From: a virus
Length of the DNA: 64,000 bases
Virus record (IMG/VR): IMGVR_UViG_3300021405_000007
Span: 1 to 64,000 of that record
Direction: 5' to 3' (one strand)
Of this stretch, positions 802 to 52,976 are shown one piece after another (position 1 is the stretch's first letter; each line of letters opens with the position of its first letter). The position numbers and the translations under genes were made by a program. The notes beneath the pieces are model-generated. The model was given only the letters and a program-made list of their open reading frames with translations. It was not told where the DNA came from and did not search any database.

Positions 802-1083
802 ATGTTCAAAGTGAAAATACTGTGGTTAGGTTCAGAAGGTAAGGCTATGAGTATTATTGGAACTTGCCCTAAAATACCTAAAGTAGGTTCCGAACTCAAA
901 CTTGTTATTGATGATTTAAGTAAAATAGAGGTTATATTTGGCTCGATTAAAGAGATTAGAAATGATTGTAAAGGGTTATTAGATTTTTACACAACTTTCG
1001 GCAATTTTGAATTCTTAATTTTGGAGAAGGTGGATAAATATGAAGTTATTGATTTTTCCAAGTACCAAAAAAGAAGAGTCTAA
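802..1083 (+). CDS. hypothetical protein
   Basis: ORF; ATG at 802 directly after the previous stop. Confidence 0.6.
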   Translation: MFKVKILWLGSEGKAMSIIGTCPKIPKVGSELKLVIDDLSKIEVIFGSIKEIRNDCKGLLDFYTTFGNFEFLILEKVDKYEVIDFSKYQKRRV

Positions 1084-1175
1084 ATTGGAAAAACTCTTAA
1101 AGAGGTCGTTATTAGCGCAAATACCGAAAATTCATAAACTATTTTTAAATGAAGAAAAACAAAAAGGGAAAAATA

Positions 1176-4984: not shown

Positions 4985-5056
4985 ACTCTTGACTAATTAA
5001 GAAGAGTGATTCAAATTAGTAAACAGTAAACTATTAAACTACGGAGCGTAAACAAA

Positions 5057-5625: not shown

Positions 5626-5853
5626 ATGAGCTTCAAAGAAATAACAACTTCAGAAAAAAATTGCAGGAAGATAGGAACTATAGTCGAATCCGATAAGGGT
5701 GAGGTTGAGTTCCACTTCTCTGCAGAATTAGCACTTTATGATAAAGTAACTGGAAAATATTTTAAACTAAAGAAAGCTATAAATAAAGCCGATAACTTAT
5801 TTATAGTGGATTTAGAAGATGAAAATCAGGTAAAATATTTAGGCCAAGATTAA
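5626..5853 (+). CDS. hypothetical protein
   Basis: 75 aa ORF packed in the operon. Confidence 0.55.
   Translation: MSFKEITTSEKNCRKIGTIVESDKGEVEFHFSAELALYDKVTGKYFKLKKAINKADNLFIVDLEDENQVKYLGQD
5768..5795 (+). promoter_or_regulatory. sigma-28-type promoter
   Basis: TAAAGAAA-N12-GCCGATAA in the 3' end of an ORF, upstream of the GIY-YIG/ParB/PAPS/replication genes. Confidence 0.55.
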
Positions 5854-9014: not shown

Positions 9015-9342
9015 ACTTCAAAATAGAGTTAAACATGAATGGTTGGAAGTACCCAGAACACAAGATCTAAAAACTTGGGCGCTTCTAGGTTTAGTCAGTG
9101 AAGTTGGGGAAGTTTCCGGAGAGATAAAAAAAGCCTTCAGAGGCGAACAGTTAAACACCGAGAACTTAAAAGAAGAGCTAGGAGATACTCTTCATTATTT
9201 AATTGCTCTAGGAAACTTATACGGTTGGGATTTAGAAAGTTTAGCAGAAAGTAATAATAGTAAATTAGACAAAAGATTCCCAAAAGGATACTCTCTAGAG
9301 GACGCAATTCTTAAGAGGGATAAAAGATGCGCTACAGATTAA
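8980..9342 (+). CDS. MazG-like nucleotide pyrophosphohydrolase
   Basis: GLVSEVGEV, EELGDTLHY, N..KL..RFP. Confidence 0.88.
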   Translation: MKRKIKVNQINKLQNRVKHEWLEVPRTQDLKTWALLGLVSEVGEVSGEIKKAFRGEQLNTENLKEELGDTLHYLIALGNLYGWDLESLAESNNSKLDKRFPKGYSLEDAILKRDKRCATD

Positions 9343-16542: not shown

Positions 16543-17514
16543 ATGTCTAAATTTACAGTAGTTGGGGATATACATTGCAAACTTGAAAATTTGGATAAAG
16601 TTAAACTTTTATTCGAAATAATCGAGAGTTTAGGTAACCCGACTATTCTACTTGGGGATCTTTTAGATACGAAGGATTTAGTTAGAGCTAGATGCCTCAA
16701 TCTTTACTATGAGTGTTTTTCTAAATCTAAATTGGAATTCACTGTGTTAGTTGGGAACCACGATTTGATAAATATCGATAGGAAAGATCATGCCCTCACC
16801 CCTCTCTGTGCTCTAAAAAATGTCACAATAGTCGATGAACCTTATATATCTACCAACTACCTTTTTCTACCCTATAATAAGAGTTTATCAGAACTTTCAG
16901 AAAGTGTGATTCATGCTAAAGAATCAGAAATAAAATTTATATTCGGTCATCTAGATATTCAAAATTTTAATTATGGGAATGGAATAATTTCTCAAGAGGG
17001 CTTTAAATTAGAAGACTTTAAAGGTTTTAAAAGAGTACTATTAGGACATTACCATTGTTTCCAAACAAAGGATAATCTTACTTACCTAGGAACCCCTTTT
17101 TCTCACTCTTTTGGCGAATCAGATCAGACTAAATACATAGGAATCTTAGATATCGAAATAAATCAACTAGAATTATTAGAAACACCTTTCCCTAAACATA
17201 GAACTTTTGAAATAAATTGTGATGCAGTAACTCCAAACTCATTAGAATTCAAAGATTTAATGGAAAACTCCTTTAAGATAAATATGAATGATTACAATAG
17301 GATAATTCTTAGCGGAAGTTCTTATAATATCAGTCAAGTTCAAAGACAAGCAGGAATCAAATATATCGAGAAACCCACTATTTCGAAAGTCCAAAAATTC
17401 AATATTGACGAAACTCTCACCCATGAGCAACAATTTAGAAAATGGTCAGAATTGATCAAAAAATATGATGGTAAGACCCTAGAACTTGGAATGGAGATTT
17501 TAAAAAATGTTTGA
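16543..17514 (+). CDS. SbcD/Mre11-like nuclease
   Basis: GDIH, LGD, GNHD, GHYH, YLGTP...FGE. Confidence 0.9.
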   Translation: MSKFTVVGDIHCKLENLDKVKLLFEIIESLGNPTILLGDLLDTKDLVRARCLNLYYECFSKSKLEFTVLVGNHDLINIDRKDHALTPLCALKNVTIVDEPYISTNYLFLPYNKSLSELSESVIHAKESEIKFIFGHLDIQNFNYGNGIISQEGFKLEDFKGFKRVLLGHYHCFQTKDNLTYLGTPFSHSFGESDQTKYIGILDIEINQLELLETPFPKHRTFEINCDAVTPNSLEFKDLMENSFKINMNDYNRIILSGSSYNISQVQRQAGIKYIEKPTISKVQKFNIDETLTHEQQFRKWSELIKKYDGKTLELGMEILKNV

Positions 17515-19228
17515 GCGAATTTCTGCAGAAAACATTTTTTCATGGAAAAGTCTCAATTATGAAGTAAAATCAGGACTGTCTCAAATATCTGGAATCAATT
17601 TGGATGATGGTACTAGAGAAGGTGCCGGAAAATCCAGTATTTTCAATATTCTTTGTTGGACTTTATTTGGAAAAATCCCCAAAGATGTAAGAATTGATGA
17701 AGTTATAAAACAAGGAGAAAAGTATTGTGCGGGTAGAGTTGATCTACTAAATGGTTGGTCTGTTTATCGATCTAGAAATCCTAATAGATTTACTGTACTT
17801 GATGAAAATGAGAAAGAGCTACAAGGAAAAGATTCCAAGGAAACCCAAGAACTATTGGAAAAAAAGTTAGGGCTAACATTCGACCTTTTCTGTCAATCGA
17901 TATATTTTTCTCAAAATCATGATAAAAAGTTCATAACAGCAAATGAAACGGAAAAAGCTAAAATTTTATCAGATATTCAAGGTTTAAGCATATATGATAA
18001 GGCTAGAGATTCGGCGGTAAAACAGATAAAAGCCGCTCAAGTTGAGATTATCAGCCTCAATAATCAAAAATTAACCAATAATTCTGATTTAGAAGCAACT
18101 AATAAACTTATTCAATTTTTACAGATGGTTATCTTAGACACTGAAATAAAGAATCAGCAAATTCTTAAGAAATCTAAGGAAACTAAGGAAGGTCTTCAAG
18201 TTCAAATTAAAGCATTTGGAGAAGTAAGTTCTCAAAAGAGTGAAGTCTTAATAGCTCTTGAAAATGCTAAGAAAGAGAAAAAGTCTCTAGAAGACTCTAG
18301 AAAACAATATTTTAAGCTTCAAACTAGTATTAGGCAAAAAGAGCTTCATGAAAACAATCTTCCGAATGCCTGCACCAAGTGTGGGCATTACCCGAAAGGC
18401 TCTGACGAAGATTATAAAGCCCTCAATAGCTATAGGACGGAGATTATCAGACTGGAGAAGAGTGGCGCCCCACGTATTGATCCTCTTCAAAATATTGAAC
18501 AACTAGAAAATGATATTGAAAGCTTGCGTGGAATTCTAGAAAGTTTAGATATTCAAGAACGAGAAAAACTCCGTTTAGAACAGAAATTGGAGACTTTCTC
18601 AGAAGAGGCTGAAGTTAGGCTTAAAGGAGTAGAGAAAGAACACATTAAACTTGAAGAAGAAGAACTCCGTTTTGGAGAACTTCGTGAAAAAATACGAATG
18701 TTGAATCATAAAATAGATCTTAAACAAGAATTAGTAAAACATTTGGAACTTTTGAAAGATGGTTTCAAAGAAATAAAATCTTACATTTTTGCTTCCATAT
18801 TAGTAGATTTATCAATAAAAGCAACAGATTATGCCTTAGAACTCTTTGAAACTCCTATAATAATTAACTTTACAAATATTTCAGAAGATAGTAATCTATC
18901 AAAGATAGAAACTAGGATCACTCTTGATGGAGCTGAGAGATCACTTGGATTGCTAAGTGGCGGACAATCTCGGAGAGTTCAGTTAGCTACAGATCTAGCA
19001 CTATCCGAAATAGTTTCAAAGCGAGCTATCAGCCCAATTTTATTTAGAATTTTTGATGAAGCTAGCAAAGATCTCTCAACTGTTTCTATTGAACGTTTTA
19101 TGAAAATCTTGGAGAGATTGCCTGGATCAACAATCGTAGTTGATCATTCTGAATTAATTCAACCGATGATTCAGCAAAATTTTATGATAAAATTAGAGAA
19201 CGGTATAAGTACTGAAGATTCAAACTAA
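17507..19228 (+). CDS. SbcC/Rad50-like ATPase
   Basis: GAGKSS, coiled coil with CTKC hook, LSGGQ, IFDE, DH. Confidence 0.92.
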   Translation: MFERISAENIFSWKSLNYEVKSGLSQISGINLDDGTREGAGKSSIFNILCWTLFGKIPKDVRIDEVIKQGEKYCAGRVDLLNGWSVYRSRNPNRFTVLDENEKELQGKDSKETQELLEKKLGLTFDLFCQSIYFSQNHDKKFITANETEKAKILSDIQGLSIYDKARDSAVKQIKAAQVEIISLNNQKLTNNSDLEATNKLIQFLQMVILDTEIKNQQILKKSKETKEGLQVQIKAFGEVSSQKSEVLIALENAKKEKKSLEDSRKQYFKLQTSIRQKELHENNLPNACTKCGHYPKGSDEDYKALNSYRTEIIRLEKSGAPRIDPLQNIEQLENDIESLRGILESLDIQEREKLRLEQKLETFSEEAEVRLKGVEKEHIKLEEEELRFGELREKIRMLNHKIDLKQELVKHLELLKDGFKEIKSYIFASILVDLSIKATDYALELFETPIIINFTNISEDSNLSKIETRITLDGAERSLGLLSGGQSRRVQLATDLALSEIVSKRAISPILFRIFDEASKDLSTVSIERFMKILERLPGSTIVVDHSELIQPMIQQNFMIKLENGISTEDSN

Positions 19229-20554: not shown

Positions 20555-21161
20555 ATCTGACATTATTCAGTCAGAAGTCGCGGGTAGAAACTACCCAGTA
20601 GACGTTCTTAAAGATTTATTTGTAAAATCGGGAATGACTCCGAAACGCATCTCCCAAAAGTTCTTCATTTCTTTACCTAAACTTATGGAATATGCTGAAA
20701 CTTTCGAATGGTTTAGATTGAAGAAAGAGCATGATCGACTTCGACTTTTCACGGCACTCAATATACGTGCTGACAGCTTTTTAGATCATATGACGGCTGA
20801 TCAACGGGAACAAAGTCTAAAAATGGATCAAAGAAATCAAGAACTTGAGGAAGTAGAGAAACACTATGCTCAGCATCATCATCTTTTCTGTGTAGATGAG
20901 TACGGTAATGTTTTGAGAAACAAGATAACGGGACTTCCTATAAAAATGGAATTTGGATCTTCTAAAGAAGAACTACAAGAACGGCGGGAACTACAAGCAA
21001 GCGTAGAACTTAATGTAAAACTATTATCTGAAGCTATAAAACGCCTTCCTATAGATATTTCCGATGAAATAATTAACATTGACTCTAATAGTAGTATTAA
21101 AAAGGTTAAGAGTTTGGAACAAGCAGCAGACGCTATTTTTGAGGATGCTGAGAAAAAATGA
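20520..21161 (+). CDS. possible terminase small subunit
   Basis: HTH-like N-terminus, helical, overlaps the TerL start; positional inference. Confidence 0.4.
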   Translation: MARRIQQQQISESDIIQSEVAGRNYPVDVLKDLFVKSGMTPKRISQKFFISLPKLMEYAETFEWFRLKKEHDRLRLFTALNIRADSFLDHMTADQREQSLKMDQRNQELEEVEKHYAQHHHLFCVDEYGNVLRNKITGLPIKMEFGSSKEELQERRELQASVELNVKLLSEAIKRLPIDISDEIINIDSNSSIKKVKSLEQAADAIFEDAEKK

Positions 21162-22996
21162 AGTTCGATCCAGAATTCGTAGAAAAAATGAATGAATTAG
21201 AGTTCGCTCGTTTTTTTAAACGAATAAGAGAAAATATTCTTAAAGATCCCCTTAATAATTTTGTAAAGAATGAGCATCTTATAAATTTTCAACCGGGGCC
21301 GGGACAATCTGTATTTTTTAAGGTAATATTTGGTCAAAAACTAGATTATATAACTAAACATCCGGTCTTAACAGAAACCTCTGAAGGACTGAGATCTGAA
21401 GACTTTAAGCTGGAATATAGGAATTATACAGAGGTTGAACTCTATGAATTGTTCTCAGGATTAGTATATAGATATACCCCAGAACCTAGAAATCGTATAA
21501 ATAATATTTTGGGAAGACGTGCAGGAAAAACAATTACAGCCTCGATACTTTCTTTATTTCAAGCTATAAGAGTAAACTGGAAACCCTTTTTGACAAAAAC
21601 CCCCGTCGCATCGGTAGTCGTACTCTCTCACTCCGTTGAATTTTCCCAAGAAGTACTCGATGTTATCAAAGGTTTAATAGATGACTCTCCTATTTTTACT
21701 AGATTGCGAGATCTTCAACGTAAAAATACCCAATCAGTATTTCATTTAGCCGTTCCTTTTCTGCAAGATGATGGAAAAACTATAGAATACTCTAGAGTAG
21801 CTATCAAGGTTGGTGCAGCTTCTAAAAGAACAACCCGTGGTCGTGCCGTATGTACTTATATCGCAGACGAAATCGCTCACTGGGGTGCAGGAGACGAAAG
21901 TAAAGAGACAGATGTAGATATCATTAGAGCACTTCGTCCCTCTCTTTTGCAGTTTGGAAAACATGCTGCTCAATTTAAACTCTCTTCTCCTTGGGCAAAA
22001 GTTGGAATTTTATATGAGGAGTGGATGCGTAGAGAAGAGCTTCAAGAAGATTATATTCAGTTGAAGGCACCCTCTTGGATGATGAATCCGATACTTCCTG
22101 AACAGGAGTTTGCCAAAGAATTTAGAGATGATCCTGAGGGTTTTGATACCGAATTTAGAGCAAACTTTTCCGACTCTGTATCAAATTTCATCCAATCCGA
22201 ATTCGTGGATACTTGTGTTCTCAAAGACACCATTTTCTTACCTCCCGCTGAAAAACGGCAAGGAGTGAGGTATGAAGCCGCTATTGATGCCGCCTTTAAA
22301 TCAGATAGGTTTGCTTTTGTTCTAGTCGGCAATAATGGACACAGAATTACCCAATACGTATCCAAAAAGTGGGAAGGATCCAAGGGTGATCCAGTAAAAG
22401 CCTTCGAAGTGGCTAAATTTATTAGTAATATTTGTAAAGACTATGGAGTAAACCAAGTATCTGCTGATCAATATGCTTTTCAGCCATTAAAAGAGATTTT
22501 TCAACAATTTAATATTTCTCTTGTAGAACAAACCTTTACGATCACTTTCAAAAAGAAGATCTTTTTTACTTTAAGAAGAGCCATACACAACAATACTTTA
22601 GATTTACTTGATGATAGAACTCTGATAAAAGAGATAAAGGAGCTTCAAGTTGAACAAACTGGAATGGGACAGATTCGAATAGGTCACTTAAGGGGTGGTC
22701 ACGATGACATCGCATGTGCTTTAGCTATAGCAGTTCATACGGTTATGGAAAAATCAGGAACTGGAGAGATGACTTCCGCAGGAACTACAACTTATTCAGA
22801 GCAACCTACTGATATGTTTGGGAGAACCTTTACAGCTCCTAATCCAGAGTTATTGGGTGCATATAAAGGCTTTGAAGGGGTAGTTGATAACACTAAAGAT
22901 TGGATTAGGGATTCCCAAACTGGCAAAATGAGAAGGGTATCAGAAATAGAACAAGAAAATGAAGGGGATAACGACGGCTTCAATTTTGCAATTTAA
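21158..22996 (+). CDS. terminase large subunit
   Basis: GRRAGKT, IADEIAH, LSSP, AAIDAA, HDDIACALA. Confidence 0.93.
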   Translation: MKFDPEFVEKMNELEFARFFKRIRENILKDPLNNFVKNEHLINFQPGPGQSVFFKVIFGQKLDYITKHPVLTETSEGLRSEDFKLEYRNYTEVELYELFSGLVYRYTPEPRNRINNILGRRAGKTITASILSLFQAIRVNWKPFLTKTPVASVVVLSHSVEFSQEVLDVIKGLIDDSPIFTRLRDLQRKNTQSVFHLAVPFLQDDGKTIEYSRVAIKVGAASKRTTRGRAVCTYIADEIAHWGAGDESKETDVDIIRALRPSLLQFGKHAAQFKLSSPWAKVGILYEEWMRREELQEDYIQLKAPSWMMNPILPEQEFAKEFRDDPEGFDTEFRANFSDSVSNFIQSEFVDTCVLKDTIFLPPAEKRQGVRYEAAIDAAFKSDRFAFVLVGNNGHRITQYVSKKWEGSKGDPVKAFEVAKFISNICKDYGVNQVSADQYAFQPLKEIFQQFNISLVEQTFTITFKKKIFFTLRRAIHNNTLDLLDDRTLIKEIKELQVEQTGMGQIRIGHLRGGHDDIACALAIAVHTVMEKSGTGEMTSAGTTTYSEQPTDMFGRTFTAPNPELLGAYKGFEGVVDNTKDWIRDSQTGKMRRVSEIEQENEGDNDGFNFAI

Positions 22997-23439: not shown

Positions 23440-25347
23440 ATGGCTGATGAAAAAAAATCTAATATTTTTAAAAAAGCTCTAGAGGCAGGAGAAGCTCTTC
23501 TAGATGTGCAGATAGCAAAAGCTAGAAGTAGTGCCATTATGCAAATACCTGAGCAAGGTGATTTTGATTTTGGGACGGCCGTAACCAAAGATAGATATCA
23601 GATAGTCAATTCTCAAGGCTACCAAGACAAGATAGGTTCTGTAGGATACGAATTTCTTAAAATGATGGCTTTTAGATCATCCGTAGTTTCAGGCATTGTA
23701 AGAACTCGCCAAAATTTAGTCGCATCCTACGCCCTACTATGTAGAGAAGGTATCGATAGAGGTTGGAGGATTAGTATAAGGGATGAAGGGGAGAAAATTG
23801 CCGCTCTAGTCGAAGCTAAAATGGGTAAAGATGGAGAAAAAAAGGGACTAGATGAACGACAACTTAAAATTGAAGCCAAAAAAGAACTAGAAATAAAAGC
23901 TAAAGCTAAAAGACGGTACGTAGAAGATTTTATAGCCAATTGCGGTGAAAAAGAACATAAACCATTTGAAGCAAAAAGATGGAATTTTGATAGATATTTG
24001 AGAGCTTTAGTCTATGATTCCCTAGTGTATGATCAAATGGTAACAGAGTTTATAGAAAAAGAAGCGGCGATAAAAGGTGCCTCCACTTTATCCTATATAA
24101 GGCCTATTGATGCTTCTACGATTCGGTTTGCATCCTATCAATTGAGCTCTTCAATAAATAGTACTGCAATTGGTGACTACAACATTCTTTACCCGGAAGA
24201 AGAGCTTAGACAATTAGAGGAAGAAGGCGGAAAACTTGAATTAGATCAAAAACTTCTAGATGAAGGCGCCTATAAATATGTTCAGCTTATAAGAGGTAAA
24301 GTAGAAAGAGCTTTTACAGAAGAACAACTAGCATTGGGGGTTAGAAATCCCATCACCGATATAGCTTTCAATGGTTACGGGTTATCGGAGTTGGAAGTAA
24401 TACTAAGTTTGGTAACTTCCCACATGCAAACCGAACACTTTAATATCCTTTTTTTCCGTCAAGGTTTCTCTGCAAAAGGCATCCTGCATATAAAAGCTAA
24501 TCTAAATAGAAGCAAACTCGAAGAAATTAGAACTCATTGGAAACATTTGATTTCTGGTAATAGAAATACGTTTCAAACCCCAATATTTTCTGGTGCAGAT
24601 GATATTCAATGGATACCACTCACACAAAATCATTCAGAAATGGAATTCAGTCTTTGGATGAATTATTTGATTAAAATGATCTGTTCTACCTATCAAATAG
24701 ATCCTTTAGAAATTGGATTCGGTATTCAAGACGCTGGCGGTAGTAGTGGGGGAATGGGTCGTGACAACTCTGCAGAAAAATTAGAAAATTCCAGAGATAA
24801 GGGTTTCATTCCTTTAATGCGCTTCATGGAAAACTATATAAACGACAATATAATCTCTAGATTAGATCCTGAATTCAAGTTTGAATGGGTAGGATTAGTG
24901 GAAGATGATCCAGTTCAGCAAGTGCAACAGGAAGCACAGGAAGTCATCTACAAAAAAACTGTTAATGAAATTCGAGCAGAAAGTGGCTTAGAACCACTAG
25001 AACTTGGTGATATGATTCTAAGTCCGGTTTACTTCCAAGCTTGGTCTCAATTCAGCGAAGAAGCTCGTAATCTTAAAATGGAAGATCAGCAAGCACAAAT
25101 GGAGATGCAAAGCCAGTTTGCTCCACCGGAGCAAGAAGCTGATGAAGGACAATTTGAGGAAAATCCGGATGAACAGTTTGCTCGAGAAGAAGAAAGTAAA
25201 CAAAACGATCATGAACGAGATTTGGAATTAAAAGATAAAGATCATGAGAATAAACTCGAACAGATCAAAACTGAAGCGAAGGCTAGACCTGCTTTAAAAA
25301 AATCTATTAAACCAATTAAAATAGAGTATTATAAAATTAATGAGTAG
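23440..25347 (+). CDS. portal protein (Twort/SPO1-like)
   Basis: IDASTIR, NP..D...GYGLSELE, FFRQG..AKGIL, MEF..W..YLI...C..YQIDP.EIGF, KTVNEIRAE. Confidence 0.92.
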   Translation: MADEKKSNIFKKALEAGEALLDVQIAKARSSAIMQIPEQGDFDFGTAVTKDRYQIVNSQGYQDKIGSVGYEFLKMMAFRSSVVSGIVRTRQNLVASYALLCREGIDRGWRISIRDEGEKIAALVEAKMGKDGEKKGLDERQLKIEAKKELEIKAKAKRRYVEDFIANCGEKEHKPFEAKRWNFDRYLRALVYDSLVYDQMVTEFIEKEAAIKGASTLSYIRPIDASTIRFASYQLSSSINSTAIGDYNILYPEEELRQLEEEGGKLELDQKLLDEGAYKYVQLIRGKVERAFTEEQLALGVRNPITDIAFNGYGLSELEVILSLVTSHMQTEHFNILFFRQGFSAKGILHIKANLNRSKLEEIRTHWKHLISGNRNTFQTPIFSGADDIQWIPLTQNHSEMEFSLWMNYLIKMICSTYQIDPLEIGFGIQDAGGSSGGMGRDNSAEKLENSRDKGFIPLMRFMENYINDNIISRLDPEFKFEWVGLVEDDPVQQVQQEAQEVIYKKTVNEIRAESGLEPLELGDMILSPVYFQAWSQFSEEARNLKMEDQQAQMEMQSQFAPPEQEADEGQFEENPDEQFAREEESKQNDHERDLELKDKDHENKLEQIKTEAKARPALKKSIKPIKIEYYKINE

Positions 25348-29188: not shown

Positions 29189-29196
29189 ATTAAAGT

Positions 29197-29225
29197 TTGA
29201 CCATTTAGCCAAAAAGTGTTAAAAC
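29197..29225 (+). promoter_or_regulatory. sigma-70-type promoter
   Basis: TTGACC-N17-TAAAAC with TG extension. Confidence 0.55.
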
Positions 29226-29271
29226 TTTACTATAAGAATGGAAAAAGTCTTAAATTATAGGAAAAGTCAAA

Positions 29272-31520: not shown

Positions 31521-31529
31521 TGTTAAAAT
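31521..31529 (+). promoter_or_regulatory. extended -10 promoter
   Basis: TGTTAAAAT upstream of the scaffold/capsid operon. Confidence 0.55.
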
Positions 31530-33178: not shown

Positions 33179-34588
33179 ATGAACGTCCAGTCACAAACTC
33201 AAGAACTTACCGGTTTCGGTTACCATACCGCCGAAGAAGTTCAAGAACTCCAAAAAGCATTGTCCATTGGTGGACAATATGCTACGACCACCCCAGGTAA
33301 CTTGTCTGGCGGTCCAGCATTAGCAGTCGAAGATCTAGATCGTACTTTGAAACTGGTAACAGCTTCACTAGAAGATTTAGTACTTTGGAAAGATGTTATT
33401 AAACAAAAAGTTATGCAAACTGTTGGTCAGTACAACGTACAAAACCAATACGGTAATGAAGTAAGCCCCTTCTTTACTATGGGTTCAACTCCTACCTCAA
33501 CAGATGCTGGCTATAACCGCGATGTATTCATAGTTAAATACTTGGGTACCCAAGGTTCAGTACAGCATAACTTAACCCTCATCCAAGCTGCACACGGCCC
33601 AGTCGTTGCACGTGAGGTAAAAAACAAAACTGTTGAATTGCTCGAAAGAAATGAAAGAGCAATGTTTGATGCAGATTCTACAATCAATTCATTAGAATAC
33701 GATGGTATTGATTCACAGATCCGCGTTAAAGGCGTACAATCAAAATATATCCCACAAGGTTGGGTTGGTTATAATAAAGTTGGCGTAGATGACACTCCTG
33801 TTTTGGATACCCGTTCAGCAGGCGCAACTTCACAACTTAGCCAAGATTTCAATGAAGAAGCAGCTCTACGTGCTTTGAACAACTTCGGTCGCCCAAAACA
33901 AATGTACTTAGCTACTGACATTCATAGTGAATACAGCAGAAGCTTTTACTTATCCCAACGTACGATGCCTGGTATGATGCAACCATCCGGTTGGTATACT
34001 CCAGACTTCCGTGGGACTTTGAAATTCGACTTCCGCCCTTCAGTTTTCCTACGTGCACGTCAAGGTGTTTTATCTAGCGCAGTAAGTGCTGGATCAGCTC
34101 CTACCTTCACTTTAAGCCACACTGCTGGCGCTGGCTCTATGTTTGCTGCAAGCGATGCTGGTACTTATAGCTACCAAATCAGTGCAGTATATGCTGACGG
34201 CGAAACCCTTCCAGCCGCTGCTTCTTCAGTATCCGTTGTTGCTGGTGATGTTGTTAGTGCAGCTATTACTTATAGCGGTAGCCCACTTTACTTCAACATC
34301 TTCCGCGCCCCAATCAACACCACCGTTGGTCAACTGTTCATCGGTCGTATTGCTCCTGCAGGTACAGGCGTAAGTACTCCTATTGATTCTAACGTAAGAC
34401 TTCCAGGTTCTTCAAGAGCATATTTGCTTATGAATGATCCTGATGTTTTAGCTTGGAAACAACTTGGTTCACTTATAAAATACGATTTAGCAGTAACTAA
34501 TACCTCTTATCAATGGTTGCAATTGCTTTACGGTTCCATGTTAGTGACTGGCCCAAGAAAGAACGTAATAATTGATAACCTCGGGTAA
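33179..34588 (+). CDS. major capsid protein (Twort/SPO1-like)
   Basis: ELQKA, GG.AL.VEDLD.TLK, LWKD, E.AMF..DS....LEYDG, C-terminal LLYG...P.K. Confidence 0.9.
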   Translation: MNVQSQTQELTGFGYHTAEEVQELQKALSIGGQYATTTPGNLSGGPALAVEDLDRTLKLVTASLEDLVLWKDVIKQKVMQTVGQYNVQNQYGNEVSPFFTMGSTPTSTDAGYNRDVFIVKYLGTQGSVQHNLTLIQAAHGPVVAREVKNKTVELLERNERAMFDADSTINSLEYDGIDSQIRVKGVQSKYIPQGWVGYNKVGVDDTPVLDTRSAGATSQLSQDFNEEAALRALNNFGRPKQMYLATDIHSEYSRSFYLSQRTMPGMMQPSGWYTPDFRGTLKFDFRPSVFLRARQGVLSSAVSAGSAPTFTLSHTAGAGSMFAASDAGTYSYQISAVYADGETLPAAASSVSVVAGDVVSAAITYSGSPLYFNIFRAPINTTVGQLFIGRIAPAGTGVSTPIDSNVRLPGSSRAYLLMNDPDVLAWKQLGSLIKYDLAVTNTSYQWLQLLYGSMLVTGPRKNVIIDNLG

Positions 34589-35511: not shown

Positions 35512-35754
35512 ATGAATAACAACAATACAATAGCAAAAATCCAAAAAGTAACAGTTTCAGGTTTAGAAATGTTTGAATACGTAGTTCTCCAATACCGAGA
35601 AATCGAAGTCCAATTGGAAGAGGCCGGTTTGATCATAGAACCAAGCGCAGGTTGGAAGGTATTAGGTGAGGGCAAACGATGGTCTATTGAAGCAGCTAGA
35701 GCGGTTGTGCAGAACTTAGCAAATAGTAATGTTTATTCCTTAATCATAAGGTAA
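35512..35754 (+). CDS. hypothetical protein
   Basis: SD AAGGG, first gene after a sigma-28 promoter. Confidence 0.6.
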   Translation: MNNNNTIAKIQKVTVSGLEMFEYVVLQYREIEVQLEEAGLIIEPSAGWKVLGEGKRWSIEAARAVVQNLANSNVYSLIIR

Positions 35755-35758: not shown

Positions 35759-36031
35759 ATGTACAAAATAACAGAAAAAGTATACAAGTCTGAAACAATT
35801 AAAAAATTCTTAAAAGAAACAAAGGATGATAAAACCATGCAAAACATAGACTTGGAAGTAGGAAGCTTGGAAACATTAGAAGTAGAAGAACTAAGGGATT
35901 TAGCAATCAGTCTCTTTCACAAGACTTTTGGGACTGGGAGATTAGACTGGGATGCTAGAACGTATCTTCATGAAATTAAAGAGTATTATTCTAGACAAGA
36001 TTTGATTGATTTTATTTACGCAGAAGGCTAA
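35759..36031 (+). CDS. hypothetical protein
   Basis: 90 aa ORF. Confidence 0.55.
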   Translation: MYKITEKVYKSETIKKFLKETKDDKTMQNIDLEVGSLETLEVEELRDLAISLFHKTFGTGRLDWDARTYLHEIKEYYSRQDLIDFIYAEG

Positions 36032-36055
36032 AGTTTAATTAGAATATGCCGATAA
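36029..36055 (+). promoter_or_regulatory. sigma-28 (FliA) promoter, perfect consensus
   Basis: TAAAGTTT-N11-GCCGATAA. Confidence 0.88.
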
Positions 36056-36092
36056 AGAACTAAAGTGAGTTCTAAAAACTAAGGAGATAAAA

Positions 36093-36665
36093 ATGGATAA
36101 ATTAGTACCGATCATTGAAAAGTTAATCGAGGTATCTTCAAGTTCAGTAAACCTTTTAATGGATGAGTTACTCAGATACTACTTAATCACTACGGGGCTA
36201 CATTTACTATTAGTATTTGTAATTACAGGGATTATCTATAGATTTCTGAGTCTAGGGAAGAAATTTCTTGATTTGTGTGAGCCGAGTCAATCTAGAACTT
36301 TGTTTAAGTTTTTGTATTCGACTGTGATGGGTCTAGTATTGATTGTAGGTTTGGTATATGCTTATACTGAAGCCAAAGACACAATTAAACTGGCAGCAGC
36401 TCCACATATTTTCTTGATCGAAAAAGTTAAGGAATTGTTGCCACATAAAGAAGTGGAAAATAAGCAAACATCTCTGGGAGGTTTTTCCGTCGGCGATTGT
36501 ATACTTAGCAATGAGAAGACTGATGTGGAAGGAAAAGTTATTGCAGTAACCACAGAGGGCGCTATAATACACTTCAATTACACTGATTCAGATTCGGCGG
36601 ATTTTCTTTATAAAAAGAATCTAAAAGAATATACAAAAGCAGATGATTCAAAGTGTCGAGGATAA
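36093..36665 (+). CDS. membrane protein, two TM segments plus small beta domain
   Basis: SD AAGGAG; two hydrophobic helices. Confidence 0.65.
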   Translation: MDKLVPIIEKLIEVSSSSVNLLMDELLRYYLITTGLHLLLVFVITGIIYRFLSLGKKFLDLCEPSQSRTLFKFLYSTVMGLVLIVGLVYAYTEAKDTIKLAAAPHIFLIEKVKELLPHKEVENKQTSLGGFSVGDCILSNEKTDVEGKVIAVTTEGAIIHFNYTDSDSADFLYKKNLKEYTKADDSKCRG

Positions 36666-40287: not shown

Positions 40288-41529
40288 ATGCTGAGGGGGT
40301 TTTTACAAAAAATACAGCGCTTTCTTCTGGTTTTTGGCCCCGGCTTGATTGTGCTTGAATGCGATAACGATTTCGGCGCAGTTTCCACATATACCCAGCT
40401 TGGTGCTCAATATGGTACCAACTTTCTTTGGATTCTACTTCTTTTACTACCTATATGCTACCTTTGCCAAGAAATGGTTGTTAGGTTAGGAATAGCCACC
40501 GGTAAAGGTCACGCCGTTCTTATATATGAAAAATTTGGAAAATGGTGGGGAAGGTATTCTTTCGGAACTCTTCAAATAGTCAACTTCTTGACAGTATTGA
40601 CCGAATTTATAGGAATAAAACTAGCCTCGGAAACTCTAGGTTTTGACCCTAAACTAGCAGTAGGTCTTTTTGCTATATGTTTAATAGCTTTAGTATTGAG
40701 CGGGAGTTATTTTGTATGGGAAAAGCTCACTATTCTTTTATGTCTCGCAGATGGGGTTTGGTTTTACTTAAGCAGCGAAATAGGCCCTCCAACCCATGAG
40801 AGCATAACAAACTCTTTCATCCCAAGTATGCCAATTGGAGGGATAACCCTCCCCCTCATATTTCTTTTAATAGCTACTGTAGGGACAACTATAGCTCCAT
40901 GGCAATTATTTTTCCAACAAAGTTGTGTAATAGATAAGAACTTGAAAGCTTCTGATCTGAATCATGAAAGGCTTGATACATTTTTGGCTAGTATTTTCAC
41001 TATATTAGTAGCCGGAGCTATGGTTTGCGTAGGGGTCGTCCTTTTTAGCAAAGGAATAACCTACGTCGATCCAGCACAAATGGCCGAGGTTTTGAAACCT
41101 CTAGCAGGGGATTTTATAAAGAAGCTTATTTTAATCATGATTATAAATGCCTCTGTTCTCGGAGCGATGGCGGTAACCCTTTCTAGTTCTTGGGCTTATT
41201 CTGAAGTAGTAAATTCGGCATCGGGATTAGGTAAAAAAATAACTGAAGCACCCCAGTTTTACGGGATGTATATCTTTGGGGTTTTGCTCGCAGCAGGAAT
41301 AGTGCTAATCCCACAATTACCATTACAGCTGGTGACCATAAGCGTGCAAGTCTTAGCGGGATTACTATTGCCCCCAGCTTTAATATTTTTGCATTTACTA
41401 TTGAATGATGAAAAATTTGTTCCCAAAGAGTTTTTAAATAAACGGTGGAACAATATCGCTAATATAATCGTGATTGGTTTGATGATTGTTTTATCTTTAG
41501 CTTTAATAGCAATACCCTTTTTCTCTTAA
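40288..41529 (+). CDS. NRAMP-related Mg2+ transporter (NRMT-like, SLC11 family)
   Basis: GPGLI...DND.G.V.TY...GA.YG, QEM..RLG..TG, GTTIAPWQLFFQQS, ~11 TM; SD AAGGAG before ATG 40288. Confidence 0.9.
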   Translation: MLRGFLQKIQRFLLVFGPGLIVLECDNDFGAVSTYTQLGAQYGTNFLWILLLLLPICYLCQEMVVRLGIATGKGHAVLIYEKFGKWWGRYSFGTLQIVNFLTVLTEFIGIKLASETLGFDPKLAVGLFAICLIALVLSGSYFVWEKLTILLCLADGVWFYLSSEIGPPTHESITNSFIPSMPIGGITLPLIFLLIATVGTTIAPWQLFFQQSCVIDKNLKASDLNHERLDTFLASIFTILVAGAMVCVGVVLFSKGITYVDPAQMAEVLKPLAGDFIKKLILIMIINASVLGAMAVTLSSSWAYSEVVNSASGLGKKITEAPQFYGMYIFGVLLAAGIVLIPQLPLQLVTISVQVLAGLLLPPALIFLHLLLNDEKFVPKEFLNKRWNNIANIIVIGLMIVLSLALIAIPFFS

Positions 41530-42251: not shown

Positions 42252-42857
42252 ATGCGTATAGCAGTAGTAGACTTAGAAAATAACACTCCCCAAAATGAAT
42301 GGCAAAAATCATTAACTGAACGAGTAGAATGGGCGCCCATAATTGAGATAGGCGCTGTAATGCTTGATATTAGATCAGGTAAAATAATTTCTTCTTTTGA
42401 AACCTTTGTAAATCCCAATGAAGCAATTTTTCCAGAAATCACTGCTTTAACAGGAATAAGTGATGTAGAAACAACGGGACCAAATTCGGGGTCTCTCGAT
42501 GTAGCTTTAGATAACTTTTATCAGTGGATGGCAGATAATAACTGTAAATTAATGGCTGCTTGGGGTAGAGATTGTGATGAAATTGAGAAGCAAGCTATTA
42601 AATCAGGAATAATCAATAAGTTTAAGAAATTAGACATTAAAAGTATGTTTGATGTTTTAAAAGGTGGTTTATCCGGAAAAAAAATGAAGGGCGGTTTAAA
42701 AGGGACTTTGGAAACCTTTGGTTTAACCTTTGAAGGGAAACAGCATAGAGCCAAAGTAGATGCTTTAAATACAGCAAAACTATTATTTCACGCTAAAGAA
42801 ATTTCACTTTACGCCGATAAGATTAAGGAACATAAGTTTAGAGGATTGCAGGAGTGA
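42252..42857 (+). CDS. DEDDh 3'-5' exonuclease (ERI-1/KapD-like)
   Basis: VVDLE, IIEIGAV, LTGI, WG.D, HRAKVDA. Confidence 0.9.
   Translation: MRIAVVDLENNTPQNEWQKSLTERVEWAPIIEIGAVMLDIRSGKIISSFETFVNPNEAIFPEITALTGISDVETTGPNSGSLDVALDNFYQWMADNNCKLMAAWGRDCDEIEKQAIKSGIINKFKKLDIKSMFDVLKGGLSGKKMKGGLKGTLETFGLTFEGKQHRAKVDALNTAKLLFHAKEISLYADKIKEHKFRGLQE
42794..42820 (+). promoter_or_regulatory. sigma-28-type promoter
   Basis: TAAAGAAA-N11-GCCGATAA upstream of the Zn-finger and def genes. Confidence 0.6.
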
Positions 42858-42875: not shown

Positions 42876-43073
42876 ATGAAAGTATACTGGAAGTGTTCAT
42901 GTGGCAAAGAAGGAAGTGAAATAGAAAAATCTTCTATCATAGGTATTACTGAATTTGGAGTTTGGTTCAACTGTGAATGTAAGTCTACTCATCTAATCCG
43001 ACCAGAAGCTATTGAAAAATCAGACTTTGATTGCCCTTTGATAAATAAAGTTAATAATGCAAATGACTTATAA
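42876..43073 (+). CDS. small Zn-finger protein
   Basis: CSCG...WFNCECKST. Confidence 0.55.
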   Translation: MKVYWKCSCGKEGSEIEKSSIIGITEFGVWFNCECKSTHLIRPEAIEKSDFDCPLINKVNNANDL

Positions 43074-43536
43074 ACTTCAAAAACTTGGCGCACCCATCCT
43101 TCGAAAAAAAGTAGATAGAGTTTTAAAGTTCAAACCTAAAGAACTCGAACAACTTTTCGAAGAGATGGTTTATATTATGATCTTAAATCAAGGTATTGGG
43201 TTAGCCGCTAACCAAATAGGCCTTAATAAACAGATCTTTATAGCAGCTTTAGAAACTTCACAAGGTATAATAACTCCTCGAATGTTCATAAATCCAACAA
43301 TGTTCACACTCAGCGAACAAAAATATGAGGCTTTCGAAGAAGGTTGTTTATCAGTAAATAAAGATAAAAGAATTTCAGACTTCCGTTCTAACTCCTTATC
43401 TCTGCACTATCAAGATACTCACGGTTTAGTCAAAACAGAATCTTTTTCAGGATTCAATGCAGTTATTATCCAACATGAATGCGATCACCTAGAAGGTAAG
43501 CTCTTCATAGATTACACTAATCCACATAAATGTTAG
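43057..43536 (+). CDS. def: peptide deformylase
   Basis: GIGLAANQIG, EGCLS, QHECDHLEG. Confidence 0.96.
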   Translation: MQMTYKLQKLGAPILRKKVDRVLKFKPKELEQLFEEMVYIMILNQGIGLAANQIGLNKQIFIAALETSQGIITPRMFINPTMFTLSEQKYEAFEEGCLSVNKDKRISDFRSNSLSLHYQDTHGLVKTESFSGFNAVIIQHECDHLEGKLFIDYTNPHKC

Positions 43537-43579: not shown

Positions 43580-43888
43580 ATGATTACAGTACATTGCAAA
43601 TGCAAAAAATCTATAATGAAATTTCAGCATCTTAAAGAAGGTCATATCACTGAATACGAAGGTAGTTGTTGCAAAGACCTACAAAAACAACAACTTATGG
43701 AAGAGGCTCCAGTTTCTCAACCAACCAAACTATCTGAAAAAGATGCTGAAGTTTTTATGAAGGTTTTAGAAAATCCTCCAGAACCTAGCGAAGCTTTAAA
43801 AGCGCTCATGGCAGATCAAGAAAAAGTTGATACAGAAAAAACCAAGAAAAAATTCACTTACTTCGAACCTAAAGGAAGTAAGAAATGA
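43580..43888 (+). CDS. Cys-rich protein with a DUF1778 (TacA/AtaR antitoxin)-like C-terminal segment
   Basis: LSEKDAEVFMKVLENPPEPSEALKALM. Confidence 0.55.
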   Translation: MITVHCKCKKSIMKFQHLKEGHITEYEGSCCKDLQKQQLMEEAPVSQPTKLSEKDAEVFMKVLENPPEPSEALKALMADQEKVDTEKTKKKFTYFEPKGSKK

Positions 43889-44188: not shown

Positions 44189-44611
44189 ATGATTGAGGGA
44201 TCGTGGCTAGCAGTAGCTCCTCAGGCATTCACTGCTAATGGCACTCAATATGGTCTGATCACCCTCGCCTCAACTGCAGGGTTTTATACAAGACAGATCG
44301 TCACTATTCAAGCTACTGCTTTACCTGATTTACAAGTTCAGGTTAAACGCGTAAACGCAGACGGCGCTACAATGATTGTGGGTCCTACTGATGGAAACAT
44401 TGGAACTTGGAGCAATATTGCCCTTTACACTACAGCTGCAACCTCTACAGTTAGGGCAGCGGAACAACGTAGAGCAGCTTTGGCAATAGATGCTATATCT
44501 AGAGCAGTCTTCCAAGAAGATCCGGTTGTTGCTTTAAGGGTGGTTCTAGTGGATGGTTCCGGCAATGTTTTAGGGGTAGAAGGCAACCCGCTTCACACAA
44601 CTACTACCTAG
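44189..44611 (+). CDS. virion structural protein (paralog of 58482-59306)
   Basis: V.PQAFTA.GT..G, RAV..E.P.VA.R..LVD..GN. Confidence 0.6.
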   Translation: MIEGSWLAVAPQAFTANGTQYGLITLASTAGFYTRQIVTIQATALPDLQVQVKRVNADGATMIVGPTDGNIGTWSNIALYTTAATSTVRAAEQRRAALAIDAISRAVFQEDPVVALRVVLVDGSGNVLGVEGNPLHTTTT

Positions 44612-44621: not shown

Positions 44622-44677
44622 TAAAGATTTACAAAATAAACTCCGATAAGTATATTGTTCTTATCGGAGTTTATTTT
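44622..44677 (+). promoter_or_regulatory. sigma-28-like promoter overlapping an 18-bp perfect inverted repeat (possible terminator)
   Basis: TAAAGATT-N12-TCCGATAA; arms 44633-44650 and 44660-44677. Confidence 0.55.
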
Positions 44678-44693: not shown

Positions 44694-45080
44694 ATGAAGC
44701 TTGGCCAATTAGTAGATAATCCTCTTTTCTTGAAAGCCTTAAAGGATCTTTCATCACAACCCCTCCCCGTTCTTGCAGCCTATAAACTTGTAACTATTAT
44801 GGAGATTAGAGACCGAGAAGTCGGAAGATGGCAAAAGGTTCGAAATGCCCTTTTACAAAGTTATGGAAAAAAAGATGAAAAAGGAGAGTTAGTTATATCA
44901 GAGGATGGTACTCAGTATGTTTTGGAAAAAACAACCGCTTTTAATGAAGATTATAATCATTTGATATCTTTACCAGTAGATATACCAAAACTCTCCATTG
45001 AGGAGTTAAAAGATGTTAAACTCTCCGCCGAATCTCTTCTGATTTTGCGACCAATACTCGCTTTAGAAACCTCGGATTAG
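44694..45080 (+). CDS. hypothetical phage protein
   Basis: LPV.AAYKL...L...YG.KDE.G. Confidence 0.55.
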   Translation: MKLGQLVDNPLFLKALKDLSSQPLPVLAAYKLVTIMEIRDREVGRWQKVRNALLQSYGKKDEKGELVISEDGTQYVLEKTTAFNEDYNHLISLPVDIPKLSIEELKDVKLSAESLLILRPILALETSD

Positions 45081-50378: not shown

Positions 50379-51185
50379 ATGACGTCCATTAAAAAGGGTT
50401 GGAATGTAGAAGTAGCTAAACCTACAAAACGTCAATCCACTCTCCCTAAAGTAAATTTAAAAAAAGAACAATTTGACCAACTTATACTTGACCAAGGTGT
50501 AAATGTAAGAGTCTTTAGAACAGTTCCATGCCCTAATGTTAAGTCTATTGAAGCTGGGGAGCATGAGATTGATTGTCCACTTTGCCGTGGTTCTCAATTC
50601 GTGGATCGATACCCATTAGAAACTAGAGTTGTGATTCAATCCGTACAAACAGAAGTAGCTCACTTAGTTGAAGGTCTTTACGACGGTAATACGGTCACTA
50701 TTACCCTCCCAAGCGGTGTAGAATGCCAATATTACACCATGATTGAATTAGTTAACTATACCGAAATTTATATTGAACGTGTGTCCCGGCAATTAGGACA
50801 AGTAGATGTTCTAAAATTCCCAGCTACTAGGGTCAATTTGTTAATTGATCAACACGGCAAGGAATACCTTGAAGGTGCAGACTTTAGCGTAGATCTTAAC
50901 AGCAATATAAAATGGGGAACTAATAGAGGCCCGGTAGAAGGCACTATTTACTCAATTCATTATGAAACCAAAGTACGGTACCGTACTGTACGGGCACTGC
51001 ACACCAATCGTTATGGCAATATAACCGAAAACGGTGTGGATGATATGACTAAGATGGCGGAATCATGGTTAGGCTTCAAAATTTTCTTAGTTGACAGAAA
51101 AGATCAACTGGGCAATCTAGTTAGGAGTAATAAACTCCCACTTCATGAGATTTCTGATGATTCCGATTATTACACTACAACTTAA
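50379..51185 (+). CDS. head closure/neck protein
   Basis: F..LI...G, CP....CPLCRG, SIHY. Confidence 0.7.
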   Translation: MTSIKKGWNVEVAKPTKRQSTLPKVNLKKEQFDQLILDQGVNVRVFRTVPCPNVKSIEAGEHEIDCPLCRGSQFVDRYPLETRVVIQSVQTEVAHLVEGLYDGNTVTITLPSGVECQYYTMIELVNYTEIYIERVSRQLGQVDVLKFPATRVNLLIDQHGKEYLEGADFSVDLNSNIKWGTNRGPVEGTIYSIHYETKVRYRTVRALHTNRYGNITENGVDDMTKMAESWLGFKIFLVDRKDQLGNLVRSNKLPLHEISDDSDYYTTT

Positions 51186-51355
51186 ATAGTGGATTCTAAG
51201 TCTTCTACTTCTAATATTTCAAAAGATCCGACTGCATAACCCTCGATTACTAGGTGCCTAGCCTCTTTATCTACTTCTCTTCTTGTTGAGAAGATTCCTG
51301 AGTGGATCGCATCTTCCATGGATTCATCCTTGAATTTAATTACGTATTTTTTCAT
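51182..51355 (-). CDS. small hypothetical protein (57 aa, not in ORF track)
   Basis: SD AAGGAG; MKKYVIKFKDESMEDAIHSG... Confidence 0.65.
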   Translation of the reverse strand: MKKYVIKFKDESMEDAIHSGIFSTRREVDKEARHLVIEGYAVGSFEILEVEDLESTI

Positions 51356-51419: not shown

Positions 51420-51587
51420 CTAATAATTTTCAGTTTCTAGAAAGTCTTCATCATCAAAGTCTTCTTCTAATAGATCATCTGATTCTTTATCTTCGTGAAA
51501 TCCACCATCTTCGTATTCTTTTTCTAAGTTTCCAAAGGCTAACTCATTCATTTCTTTACTTAATTTTATCATTTCTTCTATTCTCAT
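51420..51587 (-). CDS. small highly acidic protein (55 aa, not in ORF track)
   Basis: SD AAGGAG; MRIEEMIKLSKEMNELAFGNLEKEYEDGGFHEDKESDDLLEEDFDDEDFLETENY. Confidence 0.7.
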   Translation of the reverse strand: MRIEEMIKLSKEMNELAFGNLEKEYEDGGFHEDKESDDLLEEDFDDEDFLETENY

Positions 51588-51659: not shown

Positions 51660-51688
51660 TTGCATCTTTTGACAATAATCAGTAAACT
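51660..51688 (+). promoter_or_regulatory. sigma-70-type promoter for the sigma factor gene
   Basis: TTGCAT-N17-TAAACT. Confidence 0.5.
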
Positions 51689-51785
51689 ATAATTAACTCA
51701 TTGAGGGTAGTATAGCTAACTCTTCAAGATTCTTACCAAATTTGGTAAAATAATTAAAAAATTTTTATTAAATTTGGATTCAATC

Positions 51786-52976
51786 ATGCAAGATGACTTA
51801 GATATCGTCAACGAGAATGATATTCTTGTTATAGAGACGATAGTTTACAATGACAACTCTTCTTACGCTGAAGACAATTCTTCACCTTCCCTTAAAACCT
51901 ATATAAGACAACTATCTAAATTTCCACTTCTTACCCGAGAACAAGAACTTTCGCTCACGAGAAACCTCAAAAAGAACCGTGAGATCCTTTATTCAGCCTT
52001 TATGAAAACCCCAGAATGTCGTCTAGAACTTATGCAAATGCTCAACGCTAAGGTAGGTAGAGCTCGTAGAATGTTTGATCATATAGCAGAAGCTACCGAT
52101 GACGATGAGAAGGTTCTGAATCTTCAAGAAGAGCTAGCCAATGCCATAAAAGATAATAACTTCTCCAAGAAAAATCACAAGAATTTTCAGAACTTAGTTA
52201 TCCCTTTTAATGATTTTTATAGACTAGTTAATATTCTAAAAGCAAAAGAACTCACTCCTGAAGTCTCTAAAGCCCTCAATGAATACAACCAAATGAAGAA
52301 AAGGTTGTCAGAGTGTAATCTTCGTTTAGTCTTCGCTAGGGCTAAGAGATTTATGAATAGAGGCATGTCTTTAGAGGATCTTATCCAAGAGGGTAACGTG
52401 GGATTACTTAAGGCAATTGAGAAGTATAATCCAGAAAAAGGAAACAAATTCAGCACTTATGCTACTTGGTGGATTGATCAAGCTTTTGGCCGCGCTTTAG
52501 TGGACAAAAGTAAACTTGTACGTATCCCTGTACATATGGTTGATTCCATCAATAAAGTCAATAAAGCTTTTCAGACTCTTTCTGAGACTCTGACACATGA
52601 ACCTAGCAATGAAGAAATAGCAAAACTTACGGGACTAACTCTAGAGAAAGTTCGAAAAGTCAGAAACTCCATTATTCTAAAAGCTAAGTACCTTCAAGAA
52701 TTTCAAAATGATAAAGCTCTTCCTAAAATTATGGATTTTCCCGACGAGTCTAAAAATCCCGAAGAGCAACTCGAAGAGAAAGAATTAAGTGTTAAAGTAC
52801 GGGAATTTTTAGCAACTCTTTCGCCGCAAGAAGAAAAGATTTTAAGACTCAGGTTCGGAATTGGTGAAGCGAGAAGCTATGAAGTACAAGAAATAGCGAA
52901 CACTGTAAAATTAACACGTCAAAGAGTTTCTCAAATTCTCAATAAGACTAAGAAATTATGGGAATTTAAGGTATAA
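51786..52976 (+). CDS. RpoD-like sigma-70 family sigma factor
   Basis: region 1.2 (Y.RQ....PLLTREQE), NLRLV..AK, DLIQEGNVGLLKAIEKY, KFSTYATWWI, RIPVHM, LRFG, TRQRVSQI. Confidence 0.95.
   Translation: MQDDLDIVNENDILVIETIVYNDNSSYAEDNSSPSLKTYIRQLSKFPLLTREQELSLTRNLKKNREILYSAFMKTPECRLELMQMLNAKVGRARRMFDHIAEATDDDEKVLNLQEELANAIKDNNFSKKNHKNFQNLVIPFNDFYRLVNILKAKELTPEVSKALNEYNQMKKRLSECNLRLVFARAKRFMNRGMSLEDLIQEGNVGLLKAIEKYNPEKGNKFSTYATWWIDQAFGRALVDKSKLVRIPVHMVDSINKVNKAFQTLSETLTHEPSNEEIAKLTGLTLEKVRKVRNSIILKAKYLQEFQNDKALPKIMDFPDESKNPEEQLEEKELSVKVREFLATLSPQEEKILRLRFGIGEARSYEVQEIANTVKLTRQRVSQILNKTKKLWEFKV

Follow-up and report, generated by a model that had tools for sequence, protein, structure and literature searches.

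Sites matching the sigma-28 promoter consensus precede replication and accessory genes of an uncultured 108-kb myovirus

Sigma-28-type sites in a closed phage genome

The DNA analysed here (the window) comprises the first 64 kb (64,000 nucleotides) of a single IMG/VR phage contig of 108,106 bp, which represents an uncultured tailed phage whose genome is labelled G000 below. The terminal 128 nt of the contig (genome 107979-108106) are a copy of window positions 1-128 with one mismatch. This overlap of the ends indicated that the genome is closed at approximately 107,978 bp, despite a database label of linear and 93% complete. By gene content, G000 is a myovirus (Table 1), and its capsid protein is approximately 30% identical to the capsids of SPO1-like Bacillus phages. 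Megablast searches yielded no near-identical cultured phage and no close cultured relative, and neither tRNA genes nor Rfam families were detected in the genome or the window. The genome has a G+C content of 36%, strong GGAGG ribosome-binding sites (RBS) and only 6.6% intergenic DNA.

The two octamers TAAAGTTT-n11-GCCGATAA form the consensus of sigma-28 (FliA), as found in class 3 flagellar and chemotaxis promoters of E. coli and Salmonella (PMC2859248). The whole genome was scored against this published consensus, TAAAGTTT-N11/12-GCCGATAA, with a spacer of 11 or 12 nt and a maximum score of 16. The seven sites listed for the window in the initial annotation were all recovered at the same coordinates and on the same strands (P1 to P7, Table 1), including the perfect copy P4, and their boxes and spacing, which had been taken as those of sigma-28 promoters, agreed with the consensus in PMC2859248. 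Together with seven good sites beyond the window, they make up a class of about fourteen sites in G000.

Table 1. Sigma-28-type sites, the units behind them, and other features of G000. Positions are those of the window unless marked "genome"; + and - attached to a position give its strand.
Feature	Position	Strand	Description
P1	114..141	+	TAAAGGTT-N12-ACCGATAG; -35 7 + -10 6 = 13/16
P1 unit	207-5623	+	Module with 197-aa ORF, GroEL and SbcD-like exonuclease
P2	5768..5795	+	TAAAGAAA-N12-GCCGATAA; 5+8 = 13/16; weak -35
P2 unit	5857-6672		GIY-YIG/NUMOD3 homing endonuclease, 62 nt from site; then ParB-like, PAPS-reductase-like, primase-helicase and DNA polymerase genes
P3	35454..35481	+	TAAAGTTT-N12-ACCGATAT; 8+6 = 14/16
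P3 unit	35512-35754	+	Orphan ORF, 31 nt past site
P4	36029..36055	+	Perfect TAAAGTTT-N11-GCCGATAA; 16/16
P4 unit	36093-36665	+	Orphan membrane-protein ORF, 38 nt past site
P5	42794..42820	+	TAAAGAAA-N11-GCCGATAA; 5+8 = 13/16; weak -35
P5 unit	42876-43073; 43057-43536	+	65-aa ORF; then peptide deformylase
P6	44622..44649	+	7+7 = 14/16; overlaps intrinsic terminator
P6 unit	44694-45080	+	Orphan ORF
P7	51625..51651	-	TAAAGTTT-N11-ACCGAAGA; 8+5 = 13/16
P7 unit	51420-51587; 51182-51355	-	Acidic 55-aa protein; 57-aa protein; divergent from sigma gene
Seven good sites beyond window	genome 69344-, 74007-, 95353-, 97123-, 100441-, 104600-, 105069+		
Weaker site beyond window	genome 67517-		
Unit of 104600-	genome		Small membrane ORF, M15 peptidase, BT1 transporter, dUTPase
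Units of 69344- and 67517-	genome		ThyX, 2OG-Fe(II) oxygenase
Sole phage sigma factor	51786-52976	+	RpoD-like; regions 1.2, 2, 3 and 4
TGTTAWAAT copies	31521..31529, 42222, 44152, 45152	+	
TGTTAWAAT copies	genome 74053, 80552, 87874, 97141, 97200	+	
GroEL	1176-2774		
SbcD-like exonuclease	3698-4984		
Primase-helicase	9327-11255		
DNA polymerase	11221-13851		
SbcC-like subunit	17507-19228		
Large terminase	21158-22996		
Portal	23440-25347		
Major capsid protein	33179-34588		
Tail sheath	55043-57190		

Within this class, TAAAG was present in the -35 box of 14/14 sites, the full TAAAGTTT in 5 and a 7/8 match in 5 more, and the two octamers were separated by 11 or 12 nt in every site. Over 37 sites from G000 and three related viruses (G001, L027 and L008, see below), CCG was invariant in the -10 box and was followed by A in 92% and by TAA in 76-84% of the sites; CCGAAGA, CCGAAAA and CCGTTAA also occurred as variants. 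In an intergenic region at 29189-29271, TAAAGTTT and an inverted copy AAACTTTA, located 29 nt downstream, flank GCCAAAAA, a spacing that is wrong for a sigma-28 site.

Sites scoring at least 14/16 numbered 8 in the whole 108-kb genome, against 0.49 expected from 421 third-order Markov simulations (maximum 5), while 4 sites reached at least 15/16 (0.03 expected in the same simulations). In the window, the pattern TAAAG-N15-CCGA matched 5 times against 0.46 expected, and a count of 5 was reached in 0/100 shuffles. Occurrence of the motif by chance is excluded. All 8 sites at or above 14/16 are in sense orientation and lie in intergenic DNA or at a gene edge. The initial annotation had proposed a check for enrichment over background, in sense and upstream of starts. 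Its placement of the sites, aimed at the downstream gene at approximately 30-65 nt from the start codon, was borne out: in all seven window sites, 31-66 nt separate the -10 box from the following sense start codon, and each of these starts has an AGGAG-type RBS. Across the genome, 14/14 sites are in sense, on both strands, and precede an RBS and start codon by 20-110 nt. From these properties, we interpret the sites as putative promoters belonging to the sigma-28 (FliA/SigD/WhiG) class. The geometry of all units leaves space for a transcript start right before the RBS. Transcription from sigma-28 promoters begins 6-8 nt downstream and, based on the geometry of such promoters (PMC2859248), the P4 transcript is predicted to start at approximately 36061-36064.

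Several sites overlap the preceding gene. At P3 and P4, the TAA of the -35 box doubles as the stop codon of the upstream gene (35759-36031 for P4), and P2 and P5, which have the same weak -35 box, fall within the 3' ends of ORF 5626-5853 and of an RNase T-like gene (42252-42857), respectively. P6 overlaps a terminator located 3' of gene 44189-44611: the P6 -10 box lies in the 5' arm of a perfect 18-bp hairpin (dG -27.3 kcal/mol, z -6.75), whose arms span 44633-44650 and 44660-44677 and precede a T-run. This site is ambiguous and may be a terminator alone or an overlap of terminator and promoter.

Such an embedded site would also fit a reading in which the motif is not a promoter at all, and instead is a binding site for a phage regulator or a repeat that spreads with mobile gene cassettes. 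The location of one site before a homing endonuclease gene, and near-duplicate sites, spacer included, in the related phage G001 (e.g., 90956+ and 94594-), point in the same direction. We consider this reading highly improbable, as the boxes and their distance are kept while the spacers are otherwise unrelated, the sites are strictly in sense at a short, fixed distance from RBS and start codon on both strands, and the bipartite form is identical to that of a known promoter class.

Genes downstream of the sites

Phage genes, rather than members of a flagellar or chemotaxis regulon, were found downstream of the sites: genes for GroEL, exonuclease, homing endonuclease, deformylase, ThyX, transporters and an M15 peptidase, together with orphans. 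The initial annotation had described accessory and replication genes as wired to FliA promoters. The gene content stood, as the sites head a GroEL/exonuclease/replication module and many accessory cassettes; their reading by FliA is putative. The homing endonuclease gene in the replication module has no counterpart in five relatives, and the ORFs downstream of P3, P4 and P6 matched no Pfam family. Downstream of P5, a small protein encoded at 43580-43888 showed a weak C-terminal match to TacA1/DUF1778 antitoxins (Pfam E 1.4e-05).

The P7 unit is the only minus-strand unit of the window. It is pure speculation that its very acidic 55-aa protein might act as a DNA mimic or as a binder of polymerase or sigma. 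Outside the window, the unit behind site 104600- contains a Peptidase_M15_4 (endolysin-type) gene (genome 103324-103839 -) located 3' of the small membrane ORF, and these two genes may form a lysis cassette. Because this pair is lysis-like, the sigma-28-type class is not clearly "early". The designation of these promoters as early in the initial annotation was therefore unsupported, given that one unit contains a lysis-type peptidase and that the phage sigma gene lies behind a sigma-70-type promoter.

Two full-length membrane transporters, Nramp (40288-41529) and BT1 (folate/biopterin family; genome 101176-102558 -), are common only to G000 and G001; in G001, each of the two genes is directly preceded by a sigma-28-type site. 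The last gene of the P1 module (5057-5623) encodes a 188-aa protein whose N-terminal part is beta-rich and OB-fold-like and whose tail is acidic; it resembles a single-strand DNA-binding protein. It is present in G001 and absent from the relatives G002, G003, G005 and G007.

The phage sigma factor and other promoter classes

Searches of the two closed genomes, G000 and G001, with Sigma70_r2, r4, r4_2, ECF and FliA_WhiG profiles revealed no sigma factor beyond one protein in each, RpoD-like in G000 (Table 1), and a FliA-type sigma is absent from both. The G000 protein scored highest on RpoD/MzaA (approximately 240 bits), while its FliA_WhiG (TIGR02479) score was 110-112 bits against a cut-off of 189.6. 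Membership of the FliA/WhiG family was ruled out by this sub-threshold score and by the presence of region 1.2, which the group 3 architecture lacks. In an alignment to solved RpoD/SigA chains, KFSTYATWWIDQA and RIPVHMVD were conserved, and the phage protein retains KFSTYATWW..Q and PVHM, the sigma-70 determinants for -10 and extended -10 elements. Its -35 helix is altered, reading TRQRVSQI where RpoD has TRERIRQI, with the substitutions R588S and E585Q in the -35-reading helix. Serine at the first of these positions is also the FliA state, and the -35 specificity of the phage sigma could conceivably have changed.

Upstream of the sigma gene, a sigma-70-like promoter, TTGCAT-N17-TAAACT, was identified at approximately 51664-51692, and the orthologous gene of G001 is preceded by TTGACA-N17-TAAGGT. 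The sigma-70-type promoter before this gene suggests that the host sigma-70 holoenzyme is probably also used. Canonical TTGACA-N17-TATAAT promoters were not enriched in the genome (37 vs 55.6; 65 vs 64.9 in shuffles) and, accordingly, no conventional early class was found, the promoter of the sigma gene excepted.

A second promoter class, TGTTAWAAT, corresponds to an extended -10 element without a -35 box. Of its 10 copies in the genome, 9 are intergenic and in sense, 22-112 nt before a start codon. In approximately half of the copies, the gene behind the element is a structural or tail gene (31569, 74113, 80600 and 87921, as well as gene 23048, which follows GGTATAAT at 23007), and the remaining copies precede the RNase T-like gene and orphan ORFs. 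TGATAWAAT variants occur in the relatives G002 and G007. The class does not cleanly track the presence of a phage sigma, as the sigma-less relative G005 has many TGnTAnAAT matches. The phage sigma nevertheless most likely serves the TGTTAWAAT class, which fits this protein better than the sigma-28-type sites do.

Many sites of G000, G001 and L027 have a weak element, G followed by TAWTAT, immediately behind the CCGATAA box. Its information content is 0.1-0.7 bits per position, compared with 0.7-2.4 within the CCGATAA box, and it was interpreted either as AT-rich DNA at the start of the transcript or as what is left of nested sigma-70/sigma-28 elements. It could also be a sigma-70-type -10 hexamer, in which case some sites would be dual or differently read.

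This last possibility bears on the question whether the phage sigma itself reads the sites, either through an evolved sigma-28-like specificity or by using TAWTAT as its -10 element with auxiliary contacts to TAAAGTTT and CCGA. Its non-canonical region 4.2 helix and the position of its gene next to P7 are in line with such a role. We regard it as unlikely. The residues of regions 2.3/2.4, which flip -11A and read a TATAAT-type -10 element, are intact and near-identical to those in the sigma of G002, a relative that lacks the sites; the perfect site P4 lacks an in-register TAWTAT; if TAWTAT determined the start, the GGAGG RBS would lie upstream of the transcript in four units; and the TAWTAT element is low in information. 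Further evidence on this point came from the distribution of the motif.

Distribution of the motif, its candidate reader and the host

The capsid protein of G000 has hundreds of relatives, from which 19 IMG/VR records and approximately 50 metagenome loci were collected (completeness as estimated by CheckV, capsid identity relative to G000). Conservation of the sites in related phages, suggested as a check in the initial annotation, was evident in G001 (108,914 bp, complete with terminal repeats; capsid 64%), which has 11 matches of at least 14/16 against 0.32 expected, and in L027 (capsid 61%), an 11-kb locus of a 21-kb metagenome contig with four excellent sites. Approximately 18 sites were listed for G001, all in sense and nearly all intergenic, and 14 of these lie 26-56 nt before a start codon. 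The GroEL module is headed by a site in both G000 (P1) and G001 (37119-), and in both a site is divergent from the sigma gene (P7 and 99113+, respectively). In a capsid tree, the motif-bearing G001/L063/L012, L008 and L027 grouped together in a clade that also includes G000, which has a long branch. Phages with a sigma were found on both sides of the root.

Four other relatives encode a phage sigma and showed no motif: G002 (119 kb, 100% complete; capsid 62%), G007 (complete, terminal repeats; capsid 57%) and, within the limits of their partial records, G008 (63.5 kb, 55% complete; capsid 59%) and G015 (32.5 kb, 29% complete; capsid 58%). Motif and sigma were both missing from G003 and G005 (100% complete; capsid 59-62%) and from G004 (101 kb, 87% complete; capsid 58%). 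The six phage sigmas are orthologous and have TYATWWIDQ in common, and G002 matches G000 in its region 2 and extended -10 residues. The region 4.2 helix differs between the motif-bearing phages (TRQRVSQ in G000, TRENVRQ in G001), although both have the same motif. Orthologous sigmas in motif-less relatives, together with these differing helices, indicated that the sigma does not track the motif. Both complete motif-bearing genomes do carry a sigma, which would suit reading of the sites by the phage protein, and the apparent independence of the motif rests on the motif-less relatives and on unrelated phages.

In IMG/VR, the exact 16-base consensus was present in at least 119 stretches, against 40 for a reversed control pattern. 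Among the matches listed, 14 stretches hold 2-4 copies of the consensus, and the control pattern never occurred more than once per stretch. A Sigma70_r2 gene is absent from eleven of the multi-copy contigs, of which CheckV rates four as complete. The clusters in these sigma-less contigs comprise 2-11 sites, with all 11 on a single strand of a 16-kb segment in one case; unrelated cluster-bearing viral contigs include loci L218, L247, L262, L232, L252, L263 and L294 (records G020-G030). In several of these contigs, TTGACA lies within the sigma-28 spacer, giving nested sigma-70 and sigma-28 elements. The scan of IMG/VR suggests that the phenomenon is widespread, and the presence of the same motif in sigma-less phages argues against reading by the phage sigma. 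A phage-encoded sigma that reads these sites had been named in the initial annotation as a finding that would contradict a link to host FliA. G000 does encode a sigma factor, within the window, but its -10 residues are of the sigma-70 type and the comparative evidence speaks against its reading the sites.

The reader might also be an unrecognised phage factor, for instance a sigma of highly divergent sequence, or an appropriator comparable to T4 MotA/AsiA that redirects the host sigma-70 holoenzyme. In favour of such a factor, general profiles can miss divergent sigmas of phages (e.g., T4 gp55 and SPO1 gp28/gp34), and many orphan genes are common only to G000 and G001. We nonetheless judge this very unlikely: the motif is base for base the consensus of cellular sigma-28, and there is no reason why a new factor should imitate it; neither closed genome yielded a sigma-like profile match to such a factor; the proteins found only in G000 and G001 had no sigma match in Pfam or PHROGs; and the same motif occurs in unrelated phages. 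The best-placed candidate for a cryptic factor, the 5057-5623 protein, was rejected, as it looks OB-fold/SSB-like with an acidic tail.

The RpoD-like nature of the sole phage sigma, the motif-less relatives that carry a sigma and the sigma-less phages that carry the motif make host sigma-28 the likeliest reader. We estimate at roughly 0.6 the probability that the sites are read by a host holoenzyme of the sigma-28 family and not by a phage factor. Under reading by the host, its sigma-28 holoenzyme would transcribe from the approximately 14 phage sites and thereby drive the GroEL/exonuclease/replication module, the homing endonuclease, the peptide deformylase, the ThyX and oxygenase genes, the unit with lysis-type peptidase, BT1 transporter and dUTPase, and many small orphan cassettes. 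The phage RpoD-like sigma, itself expressed from a sigma-70-type promoter, would serve the separate, -35-less TGTTAWAAT promoters, largely before structural genes. Expression of a large part of the genome would then need an infected cell with active sigma-28, meaning one that is motile or building a flagellum. Dependence of replication genes on a minor, FlgM-controlled sigma would be odd for a phage.

Sigma-28 promoters themselves are textbook knowledge; as a genome-wide class in a phage, no published description was found in a full-text literature search. Phage transcription is thought to begin with the host housekeeping sigma and to continue with phage-made factors. Sigma cascades encoded by phages include those of SPO1 (gp28 and gp33/34) and T4 (gp55), and known phage sigmas read phage-specific promoters. 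G000 is comparable to these systems, being a large myovirus whose capsid is SPO1-like and which has a sigma of its own and two or more promoter classes; in contrast to them, one of its classes copies the consensus of a host alternative sigma, and its own sigma is RpoD-derived. The flxA gene of the E. coli Qin cryptic prophage is FliA-dependent and provides a case of a prophage-borne gene under a sigma-28 promoter, but Qin offers a single gene in a defective prophage, whereas G000 has a genome-wide class in a lytic-type phage. The class 3 promoters of E. coli and Salmonella have the same two octamers, 11-12 nt spacing and sense position just upstream of genes (PMC2859248). The phage sites differ in that replication, accessory and lysis-type genes lie behind a set of approximately 14 in a virus without fliA, with FliA dependence putative. 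In Bdellovibrio bacteriovorus, the parallel drawn in the initial annotation, attack-phase genes have FliA-type promoters, and a sigma-28-type factor appears tied to a whole cell state beyond flagella (PMC3627812).

G000 appears to place much of its gene content under an alternative, motility-tied sigma of its host, which would represent a different way of sensing the host state. If so, the outcome of infection would depend on flagellation of the cell, a prediction relevant to flagellotropic phages and to the dynamics of phages and hosts in soil and other structured habitats. The arrangement would suit phages that adsorb to rotating flagella, since the export of FlgM, and with it the release of sigma-28, is assured once a flagellum is complete, and it would also suit hosts with bistable or phase-specific sigma-28 activity. 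More tentatively, and with the odds somewhat against it, a soil-type myovirus clade and, independently, many other uncultured phages may have swapped housekeeping-type promoters for host sigma-28 promoters at their replication, accessory and lysis genes, with productive infection gated by the motility of the host.

Reading by host sigma-28 would require a host that encodes a FliA-type sigma, which would aid host prediction. An attack-phase host among the Bdellovibrionota, named as an example in the initial annotation, found no support: nothing in the search for host signals connected G000 with this group. The GroEL of G000 groups with viral GroELs, no cellular protein is closely related to the BT1 transporter, whose Atlas neighbours are mixed, and the G+C content and GGAGG-type RBS single out none of the phyla matched by Nramp. 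This transporter gave the sole host-like signal, which is not decisive: it shares 52-57% identity with genes from soil members of the Acidobacteriota and Bacteroidota (Chitinophagaceae, Mucilaginibacter) and from Armatimonadota MAGs. Bryocella, which is among the Nramp matches, encodes a FliA-family sigma that scored above the cut-off.
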